Below the pieces are notes generated by a model. The model searched no databases and had not been told where the DNA came from. It saw only the letters and a program-made list of their open reading frames with translations. From assembly GCA_040954595.2 (NCBI GenBank), contig CM082581.2, positions 5,200,699 through 5,264,698 on the forward strand: 64,000 nt of DNA, given 5' to 3'. This stretch comes from Balanoglossus misakiensis. Taxonomy: Eukaryota > Animalia > Hemichordata. A program made the position numbers and the translations under genes. Positions 49,169 through 55,100 of the stretch are shown here, piece by piece (position 1 is the stretch's first letter; every line of letters starts with the position of its first letter).

Positions 49169-52100
49169 TCACTTCACACCTTTGGCAGCCAGTTCCTCCT
49201 TGACTCTTTTCAGGTAACCTGGATCTGGGTAACCATACCTGTGGTGAATATAAAAAAAACAGAAAAGTGATAAATCTGTACAATTTGATAATTACCTCCT
49301 CTTCAACTAAGATAACTGTAATAGGAGTTATTATTGTAGTATTTGACATAAACGTCAATATATATGCCTTGCCCTTGCACCGCATTTCAATGAAATAGGT
49401 TCAGCCATGTCTGACTAAACATGGCTGCATGCAGATTGACATACACACAGATGGGTTGGAAGACAGACACAAGGATAACAAATCCCTGAAGAAGCAAATG
49501 TACTGGCTGGAACTTCAACTTACTCTCCACTATAAAGTGATGTCTTGTGATGGATCTCATTCCATGTTACAGTATCTGTATAACCAGTTGTCATTGAAGT
49601 ACCAATGGTAAAAGTCAGTCGACGATTAAAGGCAATCTTCAGGAGTCTTAACACTTCATGACCTTCAGCGTTGTTCGGTAGATAAGCAGTGCGAGATGTT
49701 CCAGAGTAACGTTTGCCAGGATTTGGATGCTCTTTCTGTAGAAATATGAACCAGGTGAAAACTGTAGTTGTCAATAACATTTGAACAAATTTGAATGCTT
49801 TCACAACATCTTCCATAAGGGGTTGGGTTTAAAGCCCAAATAGCTGCCATATTGAATTTTTTCATGATTAACGGGTGTCACGCACATTTATTTAGCTGCC
49901 CATTGCAAGTTAAGTGCACACAACTATCATGGTTAACACACATACATTGTAGGTATTAGAATCGCCACAAGCCATTCTTCAAGGTCAAACTGATTTCAGT
50001 CAAGAGTATGGAGAATGCTACCCAATACAGGACATTAAAGTACAATTTTGATAAATCATCAGTTGTGTTCATTTGGGCAAGTGGGGGTTTAGTTTACTTG
50101 CCCAAATTGGAAAAGCACTTAGTTGCCAAGTATAATTTCGATGGTTTGAAAAAAATCAAGAACATTTTTCATTTCACAAACTGAATATATGCATCTAACT
50201 TCATAATGTGGTAAGAAAATGTCAGTCACTCCCTCATCAACCCTCAGGAGTACCGTACAATCAATGTACTCCAGGTTTGTCCATTATAGGTCATTGGTGG
50301 GTATTTTTTTAAATATAGAGTTGTGGTATATTTCAACATACAAAATTAACACATAGTTGTACGAAAAGTCTCTTACCCCCTGTACTCCATCTTTGAATGA
50401 ATAGTTGATGACTATACAGCCACATCCTGGGTATCCTGAAAGATCATAATATTTGTCTACCCGGTCCTTCATAGTTCCTTTAGGCATGCTACCAGTGACA
50501 GTCCCAAATGTTTGTTTGCAGATGGGACAGATTGGTCCATTAGTTTTTTCTGATGTATCCATACAACTCCTACAGAATGTGTGTTTACATGGTAGTGTCT
50601 TGGGTTTCTTCATCTTATCAAGACATATGGCACAATCACCATCTTTTGGATCATCACTTTTAGCCTTCTGAACAGAGGTTCCAGTTACTGCTTTGGGAAC
50701 AGCTCCATGCGAACTATTTGGTTTACTACCATAAGTAGTTCCACCTTCAACAACATTAGACCACAGTTTTGCTCTTTCTCTAACACCAACTTGTGATTCC
50801 ATAGAATGGGGTGTGTCAGTGCTACCATAACCAGATGTTGTTCCTTTAGAATACCCACTTCCATCAACAGAGCTTTCTTTACTTCTGAATCTACCAGTAG
50901 TATCTGTTCCCATATAATTTGACATTTCAAAATTGCCACATGCTTTGGAAAACACTGATACAAATGATTCAAGAGTTTTGTCATTGATATCCATGAAGTG
51001 TATTTCCATGAGTGAACTTGTATGATTATGCAAATAATCAAACATCGCGTCAAACATCACTTCTGCACAAATATCCTTTGGAACATCATAAATACCTGTA
51101 AAAATGGAAGTAGAGCCATGGTTATATGTGATTTAAGTGATCAAGTGTTCAATGTTGTGATACAAATTATGCAACACAGACTGTAGGTAAGAAATAATGT
51201 GTACACTGAAGGGATATTACAGTAGACAGGGTTTCTTTGACCCTCTTTTGTTTATTCCGGGTAAAACGTGAAAAGACATGGTAATGGCTATCTGCTTCTC
51301 AGGCCATAAACTGGACTGATATGTCTTCAACTCATAGTGACCAAATAGCAAAAGGAAAATATGAGCTAAGATTTACGACTATCATCATGCATACATACCT
51401 GTGCCTATAGCTGGGATGGCAATGGACCTGGCCTTTAATTGTTCAGCCATAATGAGAAGGTTTGTACAGCATCTATATAAAGCATCTCTCACTCCAGCTT
51501 CATTCCGCCCAGTCCACACAGGACCAACAGCATGGAGAACCCACTTGCTCGGAAGACTCCCTGCTTTAGTGTAGACTACTTCAGACAATCCAATCTGGCG
51601 TCCAGATCTACTTGCTATGATGTCATCACTCTCTTTCTGAATACTGTACCCTCCTGCCTTCACAATTGCCCCAGCAACCCCTCCACCATGTGAAAGCCTG
51701 CTATTGGCAGCATTAGCTATAGCATCAACATTTGCTTTTGTGATGTCTCCCCGACAAATGGAAATCTTAGTTTTTTGTGCTCCTCCTAATTCTAACTGTA
51801 GTAGAACTTTTCCAGTTTTGTCACTTCTATCATCTGAATTGCTTCTCTGAACTCCATGTAGCCCATGTCTTTTCCTTCCACCATGACGACCTGGTGGAAC
51901 AGTCACACCAAGGAAATCGCAGAATGTTTCCATGGCAAGCTTGACCTCATCTACCTCGCCCAATATTCTGAACTGTTTCTTTTCTGTTTCTTTTATTAAA
52001 ACATTTCCAAATATTCTTTGTGTGCTTCTCTTAGCATCAGTTATCGAAGATGAAACATCCTTTCCAGTCAAATCTAGCTCCTTAGACACCATTTTTGAAT

Positions 52101-55100
52101 GAAGACTTTGCACATATGAAACAAATTCTTCATAGACAGATTCCAACAATTGCTGTGTACATTTAATGTTGCCCTTGGCGGGTTTTATGATGATGCCCTC
52201 ACCCCCACCCCACATAAATTCTACACCATTTGAACGTTCCATGTCGTTCAGCCTATCTCTGTGTGCATGGAATAAGAAAGCTAGCATGTCTTGCCCAACA
52301 GTACCATGTTTGCTTAAATGTTCATCGTCTGCAGACTTGGCCTCTGTGCTTGGCGGAAAATCATAATCTCCTGCTTTGAAAGACAGAGCTTTCTTGTGAT
52401 GTATTCCTAGAGCCTTTTCAACTAACTTTACCACATCAGAAAGTTTTTCAGAATCATCACTCAACAGTACATATTTTCTAATTGGTACGGTATACCAAAC
52501 TACTTTCTCGTCGAACATATCCAACACATTTATAGCATCCTTTTCTTGATTTTGCTGTAGTTTTGCTACAGTTGAAAAATCAATCTCTGCTTTGCAAAGT
52601 GATCCTTTCACTACTTTTAAAAAGGACTCAAATGCTTCCTTTGTCTTCAATGCAGATTTGGGAGGGCCATTCTCATCTGGAATTATATAAACAATCTCCC
52701 TTTCATCCTTTGGGGACCATTTAATATGGGTTTTATTACGACTCATAAGCCTAGCAATTTGGTTTTCATATCTTTTAAAAACATAAAATAAAGTGTCATA
52801 ACTTTCCTTGACTGACACATGATCAGTTTTTGCAGCATAGCTCTCTTTCTCCTTGTGGTGATTACCCTGTGACATAACAACTGTGTCTCCAGTCCCACTG
52901 ATTCTAGGTTCTTTAGCTGTACATTTAGTTTGTGTAACATCTCTTGTTACTTGGCTTCCTGCATCATGTTTAGCCTTGGTTTCTAAAGCTTTGCCTCCAA
53001 TTAGATCACTAGTGTTATCTTTTGACACAACTGACACATTACCAACTTTTATAACTGTATCTTCTGTTGCTTGTTTCATTTCCGCAACAGGACTTTCGGT
53101 ATTTGATGCCCAAGCCTTCAAATTCTCTATCTGCAAAAATTCATCATCTTCATCTTTGCCACTCTCTCCAATCTGACTAAAATTTGCTGCCAAGGTTTTA
53201 GTTTGCGAATTTCTACTTTTCGTTTCTGGGCCCTGTTTCAATTGATGTTTAGCTCTGGATTGATGCTGATTACCTGCAGACTGACTGTCCTTTGCTGGAT
53301 CTTTTCTGTTTGACAAACTTCGGGTTAGATGAGCATATTCAGGACTTTCCCTACCTGATTTATTAGTAGTTTCTGAAACATCACCTTCTGTTCCTTGACC
53401 TCCCTTCACTTGGGTTTTATTATGACTGGTGTTAACCCTACTGTCAGACTGACTAATATTAGTTTTGAAGGTTGCTGAAACATCTGATAACCCACTTTCA
53501 GCTACCCCACCTGTTCCTTTTGCTTTATCTACTGCACCTTCAGTGTACATCTTACCAGAGGTGACTGGAGGCTTAATACCAACTTTTTGACACAATTCCT
53601 GCACTGCAATATCTAAATCTGTGTCATCCTCTCCGAGCAATTTGAAACATTTGGCATTTCTTGCTTTTGATTTAATATGAACAAGTTTATTCTTCCTTTC
53701 ATGGGAGTCTACAACTGTTTTTGCTTCTCTTATTTTGTCTGAATTGATGTTCAATCCCCCAAGATCAATTATTCTGTAGACAATTTTATCTCTTACAGAT
53801 TTCATCAGTTCCTTGAATTTATTACATGCTTGTCTAACATCATCTGTTGAAGATTCTCCTTTTGGCGAGATGAAGACCTTTTTCTCATCTCTTTTCTGAT
53901 CCCATGTAATAAAAACTTTATTGGCCTTGATATCAAGTAGTTCCTTTCTGCGTGTGATAAACACATACTGTAATATTTCTGGATCAGCTTCTACGAAAAT
54001 AGGGCCACACTCAGGATTTAATGTCTCATTATTGGACCCTTCCTCATTAGTTGATTCCCCTGGAGCTGCAACAGATACTGATGCAGCAGATTTGTCTTGT
54101 TGATAACTACCAGCTTCTTCATTACGCACTTTAACAGTCTTGTCATTTGGACATTTATGAGAGTCGTCTTTTGTCACATTACTAACTTCATTTGGCTTTT
54201 GATTACTTGTATCTGGTTTAGCCATGTCTAGTGTGTGTGCTGTGGGTGTACCATTTCTTCCATCATTTGTAGTCACTGGTGTTGTGACATCTAGCCCTCT
54301 ACTTATAGAATTTACTGATGGTTCTTGTGGAGTGCGTAAAATCATGGTTCTGTTGGGCAAGACTTCTCTGCTGCCTTTTATTCTTCTGAAAGCAGGACGT
54401 TGTTCCCCTCCAATATTATGTGGTTCAGTCACATTGTCTTTGGAGCCAACAGTGATTGTTCTACTTCTTTCATCTTGCTTTTCATGTTCTGACTGTTTAT
54501 GCATGGGAAGGACATGAACATCAGACTTATTATCTTGCATTTCTTTTATCGGAGCACCTTCCTGAAAACTACCTATGGCAAGGTTATCTGGTCCCTCTTC
54601 TTCATTATCTTTATTTGCTAGTTCTTTCTGATCTTCCTGGCTACCATTATTATTTTTCAAATCATTAGACTTTGTACCTTCATGTACAGGACCCTTTCCA
54701 TCAAACCCTTCTGTCAAATTCTCTCCCTCATACATTTTGGAGCTGTTCTGTTGAACTGGACCTGATAGCGAACTAGCACCTTCTTTACAAGTTTCATTGT
54801 GATATTCTGTTACCATGGAAACACTTTCATTGCCTTGATTTTGCATCAGTGATAGCAATTTTTCATTTTCTTTGATGATATTTTCAAGATTCCCCTTCAC
54901 AATGAATTTATTTTCTGTCATTTTACATTTAAGGTTTTCATTCTGACGGCAATGTGCTGTCATGTTCTTACGTAATGATACAGGTAGTTCATCTAATTTG
55001 ATTTTGCCAATCACTTCAAGGAGTTCCTATGGAAAAGAAAGAAAGATTATACTGTTGGACTCTTCCCTGCTTAACAGGTTTATCACTAACAATGTAGGTA

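Follow-up and report, generated by a model that had tools for sequence, protein, structure and literature searches.

One-chain Macro-RING-DTC architecture in a DTX3L-like hemichordate gene and its probably TRIM-headed tandem relatives, with predicted ADP-ribose erasing and ADP-ribose ubiquitylation

Why an ADP-ribose eraser, the first macrodomain (MD1) of PARP9, binds DTX3L, a ligase that ubiquitylates ADP-ribose, is a question that can be addressed with a natural one-chain form. A candidate for such a form lies in the genome of the hemichordate Balanoglossus misakiensis (NCBI GenBank assembly GCA_040954595.2, contig CM082581.2), in a 64-kb window that is the whole stretch of DNA analysed here and to which all coordinates refer. 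Five DTX3L-like genes, A to E, stand in tandem on the minus strand of the window, and the proteins nearest to theirs come from two acorn worms, Ptychodera flava and Glandiceps talaboti. A preliminary description of gene E saw in it a one-chain version of the PARP9-DTX3L complex. The reading favored here, with a probability of roughly 0.55, is that E encodes an immune-induced one-chain scaffold in which a RING-DTC module would ubiquitylate mono-ADP-ribose and a tethered macrodomain would erase it, the two competing. The architecture, the purifying selection and the intact catalytic residues of both modules are taken from the sequence, and the steps of the mechanism are modelled on human DTX2/DTX3L, PARP9 and PARP14.

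The model of gene E leads from an ATG at 60220 to a single terminal stop at 49169 in one open frame, and all nine of its introns are GT-AG. The gene had been delimited in the preliminary description as 49169..55026; six further coding exons lie 5' of 55026 and extend it by about 5 kb. We infer its splicing, including the join 51399/51095, from the DNA; two spliced homologues, XP_070541067 from P. flava and XP_077992591 from G. talaboti, each continue through the macrodomain motif at this join as a single Macro-RING-DTC chain. The features of E, with expectation values (E) of the Pfam matches, are the following.

49169..60220, minus strand: gene E, 10 coding exons, 1856 amino acids (aa), with RRM-like domain, KH-like repeats, Macro, RING and DTC
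60220-59998, 58792-58728, 57641-57507, 57333-57208 and 56602-56459, minus strand: exons 1-5 of E
56000-55752, 55026-51399, 51095-50377, 49735-49524 and 49238-49169, minus strand: exons 6-10 of E
59998..60220, minus strand: N-terminal RRM/NID-like domain in the first coding exon, PF07292, E 1.6e-6
53575..54012, minus strand: first KH-like pair, limits approximate, placed by sequence likeness to the modelled pairs
51910..52824, minus strand: second and third KH-like pairs, AlphaFold2 (AF2) mean confidence score (pLDDT) 84.7, with Foldseek and VIA matches to type I KH domains
50947..51786, minus strand: macrodomain, aa ~1395-1573, split by a phase-1 intron at 51398-51096
50635..50946, minus strand: low-complexity linker of ~100 aa between macrodomain and RING, 45% identical to that of D, with a ratio of nonsynonymous to synonymous substitution rates (dN/dS) of 0.76
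50518..50634, minus strand: C3HC4 RING, PF00097, E 2.2e-10, with Lys at the linchpin position as in DTX1/2/4
49172..50496, minus strand: DTC domain, across three exons, PF18102, E 1.8e-32 in exon 9

With an RRM and KH-like N-terminus and no WWE match, E has the layout of the DTX3L type, the RRM/NID Pfam matches being weak, and its C-terminal RING followed by DTC is that of Deltex proteins generally. Exon 1 also matches PF23085 (PARP14 RRM3) at E 6.6e-4, under the family cut-off. The stretch of gene D equivalent to the first KH-like pair of E gives a weak PF21718 (KH_DTX3L) match, E 0.045, and the region ahead of the E macrodomain is predicted to fold as type I KH domains, its AF2 model superposing on MEX-3C KH1 with VIA Z 9.6 and a root-mean-square deviation of 2.4 Å over 72 residues. 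The macrodomain (PF01661, E 1e-26) stands at the end of the 3628-bp exon 7, with the RING and the start of the DTC in exon 8 and further DTC in exon 9. Its earlier placement between the KH-like region and RING-DTC is borne out by this Pfam order and by the KH fold model. The linchpin position is that described for DTX RINGs in the available text of Zhu 2022 (PMC7615817). Neither the PARP family (PF00644), whose catalytic domain the preliminary description had reported absent, nor WWE was matched in the 14 exon pieces scanned with Pfam, with exons 2-5 and the last exon of E outside the scan; the E model ends in the DTC. The best PDB match of a homologue is the DTX3L DTC structure 3pg6 (E 6e-50), and in a RING-DTC tree built without named vertebrate DTX3 or DTX1/2/4 rows, the window copies fall in a hemichordate clade (96/93). 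E also carries a duplicated exon pair, 57507-57641 and 56459-56602.

All four macrodomain motifs named in the preliminary description are present in E on the minus strand: GDIT at aa 1407, NAAN at 1419, HGGGVA at 1427, and a fourth that is indeed split by a GT-AG phase-1 intron, with the donor after 51399 and the acceptor before 51095. The same intron occurs in D (39913/38752) and C (24692/23997), again as claimed. The loop-2 signature GI[YF]G fared less uniformly, reading GIYG in D and C and GIYD in E, where Asp1527 replaces the usual Gly. The idea of a separate macro exon that might be skipped does not survive the gene model. The domain occupies the last part of exon 7 (phase 0-1) and is completed in the first part of exon 8 (phase 1-0), the exon that also holds the RING, so the macrodomain is not cleanly skippable; macro exon skipping was rejected on these exon phases.

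The E macrodomain retains N1422, H1427, G1430, I1525 and Y1526. Together they align to PARP9 MD1 residues N140, H145, G148 and F244, as given in the accessible part of Fourkiotis 2026 (bioRxiv 10.64898/2026.08.12.744356). The four-residue hydrolase test set out in the available text of Delgado-Rodriguez 2023 (PMC10221186) asks for Asn/Ser and Gly in loop 1 and a hydrophobic and an aromatic residue in loop 2. It is passed by E, D and C, by 18/29 DTX macrodomains and by 19/20 PARP14 MD1 rows, and by 0/16 MD2/MD3 rows. The hydrolase-type assignment made earlier thus stands for these four residues and is qualified at Asp1527, the Gly after the loop-2 aromatic lying outside the published test. Both PARP14 MD1 and PARP9 MD1 are active hydrolases according to the portions available of PMC10221186 and of Kar 2024 (PMC11251020), the latter describing removal of the ADP-ribose of PARP14 by PARP9 MD1 within the complex. 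Between E and D, dN/dS is 0.28 for the macrodomain (0.25 and 0.34 for the two parts that the intron separates), close to the 0.29 of RING-DTC and unlike the 0.76 of the linker; across the window copies it is 0.24-0.34 for the macrodomain and 0.23-0.32 for RING-DTC. These ratios indicate that the E macrodomain is under purifying selection, and its residues suggest that it likely erases ADP-ribose marks.

The residues of the second activity are also intact. In the DTC of E, His1825 (49552-49550), Tyr1835 and Glu1849 (49195-49193) match DTX3L H707, Y719 and E733. The His/Glu dyad (DTX2 H582/E608; DTX3L H707/E733) is needed for ADP-ribose ubiquitylation, which in DTX2 is impaired by E608Q (Zhu 2022, in the text available). 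The RING-DTC of E therefore likely ubiquitylates ADP-ribose marks, and one predicted chain holds macrodomain N1422/G1430/I1525/Y1526 together with DTC H1825/Y1835/E1849. To this extent the earlier picture of a one-chain PARP9-DTX3L is upheld; the single macrodomain, and a macrodomain lineage apart from PARP14 MD1, do not fit it.

A possible regulatory element of E bears on when such a protein might be made.

61661..61744, minus strand: likely promoter of E, in which two NF-κB-consensus sites flank two cAMP-response element (CRE) palindromes, function predicted

This segment contains all five strand-matches to GGGRNWYYCC in the 64 kb, five matches being reached in 6/100 shuffles, and also holds two of the five occurrences of TGACGTCA. 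The NF-κB and CRE patterns applied to the window are those that we take to be the consensus. A probable first exon of E that is non-coding, with a donor near 61495, follows shortly downstream of the cluster. Immune induction of E is proposed because the sites cluster within 84 bp and because of the behavior of the vertebrate genes, for which an immune link is described in the accessible text of PMC12687431 and bioRxiv 10.1101/693333.

In the proposed mechanism, E would likely be induced during an immune response and would likely be recruited to RNA and a PARP14-type writer through its RRM and KH-like domains. Where protein or nucleic acid carries mono-ADP-ribose, the DTC His/Glu pair would activate the 3'-OH of this mark, to which the RING would pass ubiquitin, while the macrodomain would hydrolyse ADP-ribose linked to acidic residues or RNA. 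Because both pockets take ADP-ribose, they would compete and not hand over the mark. The eraser would then act as a threshold or timer, so that ADP-ribose-ubiquitin accumulates only where writing exceeds erasing. In jawed vertebrates, the eraser job of the one-chain macrodomain may have been taken over by PARP9 MD1.

Whether the one-chain form is a new fusion or an old state can be judged from its relatives. Among solved structures, the E macrodomain comes closest in sequence and fold to PARP14 MD1 and PARP9 MD1, the top PDB sequence match being 3vfq (PARP14, E 5.8e-29). A phylogeny had been suggested earlier as the check on kinship with these domains. In a tree of 84 rows, which holds a PARP14 subset and at most 15 prokaryotic rows and no PARP9, eukaryotic MacroD1/2 or hemichordate PARP14, the DTX macrodomains fell outside the PARP14 MD1 clade. 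The three window macrodomains sit within a seven-row hemichordate DTX clade (99/94), and a 98/93 branch splits 28/29 DTX macrodomains from 18/20 PARP14 MD1 rows, the DTX side also holding MD2, MD3 and one MD1 row. These placements give moderate support to an old DTX-specific macrodomain lineage beside PARP14 MD1. Recent capture from a local PARP14 MD1 was rejected, as the window macrodomains group with hemichordate DTX macrodomains (99/94-97) and not with echinoderm or amphioxus MD1 in the tree without hemichordate PARP14. A bacterial origin was likewise set aside: prokaryotic macrodomains are 40-66% identical over the best segment, yet branch apart in the trees.

The architecture is also widespread. 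A first homologue search was insensitive, giving three matches among 607 candidates and missing P0004. In the later survey, which covered the 77 representatives of at least 380 aa among 149 new cluster representatives and required both domains at E <=1e-8, chains with Macro and DTC were found in 22/77 (19/65 and 3/12 in two scan batches), in several invertebrate groups, as the preliminary description had asked to see. The ten macro-bearing representatives that were looked up come from Branchiostoma (amphioxus, five), Saccoglossus (two), the molluscs Ruditapes and Batillaria, and the soft coral Xenia. According to the available text of Picard et al. (bioRxiv 10.64898/2026.04.23.720386; Picard 2026 below), DTX3L lost its macrodomain when PARP9 arose, and PARP9 is a jawed-vertebrate partial duplicate of PARP14 in the accessible part of Delgado-Rodriguez 2023. 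Given this spread, this loss history and the age of PARP9, E represents an older state and not the novel Rosetta-stone fusion of PARP9 and DTX3L first supposed; it likely belongs, as a hemichordate representative, to the ancestral, pre-PARP9 type of DTX3L. Among the mollusc-like DTX proteins, P0139, P0200, P0249, P0242 and P0132 have a second, degenerate macrodomain, an eraser-plus-reader layout like that of PARP9 in one chain with RING-DTC. The G. talaboti isoform X2 P0006 (XP_077992592) keeps the macrodomain and a C-terminal DTC part and drops the RING and the DTC start; judged from this layout, an isoform of its type could be a ligase-dead regulator.

Comparison with known systems delimits what E adds. 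The non-vertebrate DTX3L with a macrodomain in the portion seen of Picard 2026 (Fig. 1d) resembles E in joining RRM, macrodomain and RING-DTC in one chain, and is read there as the pre-PARP9 state. The core Macro-DTX3L architecture is thus already in print, E alone adds a member to it, and the surprise is limited accordingly. Human DTX3L-PARP9 shares with E the RRM/KH-like scaffold, a RING-DTC with the H707/Y719/E733 equivalents and a macrodomain nearest PARP9/PARP14 MD1. It differs in that E is one chain with one macrodomain in place of eraser MD1 plus reader MD2, has no inactive PARP domain, carries long disordered inserts and has a macrodomain lineage separate from PARP14 MD1. PARP14 (RRM-KH-Macro1-3-WWE-ART) has the same order of RRM, KH-like and hydrolase-type macrodomain as E, but continues into Macro2-3, WWE and ART instead of RING-DTC.

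Copies A-D provide a further view of the two modules.

35307..45085, minus strand: gene D, 8 exons, 1645 aa, likely TRIM RING-B-box-B-box-coiled-coil (RBCC) head, one KH pair, Macro, RING and DTC; open model, GT-AG introns, domains by Pfam
21514..29639, minus strand: gene C, likely TRIM RBCC head, KH, Macro, RING and DTC; two open pieces, 1035 and 496 aa
6813..15325, minus strand: gene B, 8 exons, 2001 aa, likely TRIM RBCC head, KH, duplicated RING and DTC; no macrodomain
1..3085, minus strand: gene A, truncated at the start of the window, with a TRIM RBCC exon that is likely joined by in-frame splicing to an exon of DTX3L type
43970-45085 (D), 28524-29639 (C), 14225-15325 (B) and 1985-3085 (A), minus strand: RBCC exons

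Gene D has lost two KH pairs in frame near 40445. Gene C, which has an extra Ala after the GGG loop, is interrupted by a run of 11 A at 25152-25162, just before the macrodomain, that throws macro-RING-DTC out of frame with the upstream open reading frame. As the part downstream is still under purifying selection (macrodomain dN/dS 0.24-0.34), this break would be an assembly error or a recent event. In gene B, the macrodomain and its intron are gone by an in-frame deletion near 8792, and the DTC dyad, kept in E, D and C, is changed at both positions, His to Asn (7192-7190) and Glu to Gln (6839-6837), in a domain still under purifying selection (dN/dS 0.32 versus D). At the 55 DTC columns conserved at a threshold of >=85%, B departs in five; E and D share two of these departures, and the dyad accounts for two of the remaining three, a pattern with a post hoc chance figure of 0.002-0.007. 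Gln at the Glu position is found in B only (0/72 other DTC ends). The absence from B of the macrodomain and both dyad residues fits a functional link between macrodomain and DTC, and B would likely have become a ligase no longer using ADP-ribose. A Tyr-to-Phe change in B was dismissed as a sign of decay, Phe being common at that position.

Several observations weigh against the competing scaffold and the link just drawn. The joint loss in B was spotted after the fact, and the macro-bearing P0132 has lost its DTC His. Across 73 homologue rows, after removal of five redundant isoform or cluster-member rows, the dyad is intact in 20/21 macro-bearing versus 42/52 macro-less proteins (p 0.16), and in the hemichordate clade of 14 rows in 5/5 versus 4/9 (p 0.086), with three separate losses; coupling of macrodomain presence to an intact dyad is therefore a trend, not significant and suggestive only. 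Asp after the loop-2 aromatic occurs in E alone among the 29 DTX macrodomains, with Gly in 26/29 of them and in 19/20 MD1 rows, and 11/29 fail the hydrolase residue test, so that hydrolysis would appear dispensable in the family. The poorly conserved linker gives no sign of a fixed macro-DTC geometry. The branch between DTX macrodomains and MD1 is only 88/80 once MD2/3 are removed, and its deep support is moderate.

These points lend themselves to other explanations. D1527 and the failing relatives would suit a macrodomain that only reads, binding mono-ADP-ribosylated targets and holding them near RING-DTC in the manner of the DTX1/2/4 WWE or of PARP9 MD2; the E chain is without a separate reader domain, and PARP9 macrodomains are described as ADP-ribose binding in the accessible text of Picard 2026. 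This seems unlikely, if still a serious competitor, because E has all four test residues and the loop-1 His where the true readers MD2/MD3 fail in every case (16/16), and D and C keep the canonical GIYG. The lack of significant coupling, the long and weakly constrained linker and the dyad kept in those 42/52 macro-less proteins, though many of them may have PARP9, would all be expected if the modules were independent. The macrodomain would then be part of an old RRM-KH-macro chassis common with PARP14, RING-DTC would mostly ubiquitylate lysines, and the joint loss in B would be a coincidence. We consider this quite improbable, as purifying selection otherwise still acts on the DTC in which the dyad changes of B lie, and all three His losses in the hemichordate clade fall in macro-less lineages. 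An artefact, with the macro piece or the TRIM exons coming from genes that are separate or dead, or with copies collapsed during assembly, could draw on the frame break in C and on several copies being 85-92% alike over long stretches. It is very improbable in view of exon phases that bar macro skipping without loss of the RING, purifying selection on both halves, the in-frame deletions in B and D, and the TRIM junctions and database chimeras given below. The eraser-plus-ligase chain remains the preferred reading. As a one-chain protein with intact residues, E permits cis-versus-trans tests without rebuilding the human oligomer, and its paralogues D, C and B, the last without the macrodomain and both dyad residues, are ready variants.

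A second question is raised by the heads of copies A-D, each of which is preceded by an RBCC exon. The Pfam matches of this exon in C and D are PF00097, PF22586, PF00643 and a weak PF12126, and the A and B exons are 83-93% identical to those of C and D. All four (4/4) end in a phase-0 donor 226-933 bp from the next exon, with no AATAAA or ATTAAA in between, and the joined TRIM-DTX models are open in D (1645 aa), in B (2001 aa), in A up to the window edge and in C up to the break at the A run. Across the junction in A, alignment is continuous with G. talaboti P0126 and P0278 and with P. flava P0279. B-box and DTC occur in one chain in 8/38 homologue-search matches, all NCBI proteins (five P. 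flava, three G. talaboti), with the three aligned across the junction in A among these eight. A quick tree, which came with long-branch warnings, places the window RBCCs together with three P. flava chimeras (Shimodaira-Hasegawa-like approximate likelihood ratio test 97), apart from NHL-tailed TRIMs. Copies A-D thus likely begin with a TRIM RBCC exon joined to DTX exons, and would have swapped an RRM head for an RBCC head that would add dimerisation and a second RING.

Similar joins are seen elsewhere. The NCBI hemichordate models called "TRIM56-like" or uncharacterised (XP_070540330, XP_070540331; G. talaboti LOC144446720, LOC144446677) resemble A-D in having an RBCC head joined to RING-DTC. 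The eight NCBI TRIM-DTX chains lack a macrodomain, whereas D and C carry RBCC, KH, Macro, RING and DTC. In a partial S. kowalevskii model, XP_006822399, the tail of a TRIM coiled coil runs on into KH, Macro and RING. One chain of P0135 combines B-box, Macro, RING and DTC; the macrodomain of P0135 clusters with that of a gastropod (100/98) and its RBCC is only distantly related, pointing to an independent TRIM capture. P0168 combines TRIM_CC with DTC and has no macrodomain; we call it fish-like on what we take to be the finTRIM style of its sequence.

Searches of titles and abstract openings, mostly outside the subscription literature, found no paper on TRIM-Deltex chimeras or on invertebrate Macro-DTX, and the supplements of Picard 2026 may list such forms. 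The main text of Simakov 2015 has no occurrence of "deltex". That of Picard 2026 has none of "TRIM", "fusion" or "hemichordat" and, unlike the present analysis, makes no mention in the parts available of catalytic state, tandem arrays or joint loss. The TRIM-headed array with the joint loss in B is a newly noticed variant of the known Macro-DTX3L design. In mammals, the TRIM and Deltex ubiquitin systems, both antiviral, are encoded by separate genes, and a TRIM-headed Deltex ligase would bring them together. A bolder proposal, to which we give somewhat less than even credence, is that invertebrates carry undescribed two-RING TRIM-Deltex chimeras (RBCC, KH, Macro, RING, DTC) that originated independently in hemichordates, a mollusc-like lineage (P0135) and a macro-less, fish-like lineage (P0168). 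Such proteins would unite ADP-ribose erasing, ADP-ribose ubiquitylation and TRIM-type chain building, and the loss of the macrodomain together with the dyad in the array would show that the macrodomain serves ADP-ribose ubiquitylation.

P. flava P0294 and P0298 carry related RBCC heads attached to a PF04664 domain, presumably OGFr_N, and the TRIM exon family therefore seems to capture several different tails. The RBCC exons of the window, at 83-93% identity, have synonymous divergence (dS) of 0.09-0.29; for the DTX parts, dS between C and either D or E is about 1 or more. This contrast points to gene conversion or to the TRIM head having been captured repeatedly. Between the TRIM and DTX exons of D (42930-43741) and B (13517-13998) lie tandemly repeated short phase-0 exons of 144-147 bp. 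D is without the KH-like exon present in B (12400-12146) and E (56000-55752), and a TG/TGCG microsatellite occupies the spot, at ~42725-42900. Upstream, each TRIM-headed unit has a duplicated block (4013-4026, 16406-16419, 30531-30544 and 45964-45977) with a probable donor of the 5' untranslated region and an IRF-like site ~110 bp downstream; as duplicates of one block, the IRF-like sites upstream of A-D were not counted as four independent matches.

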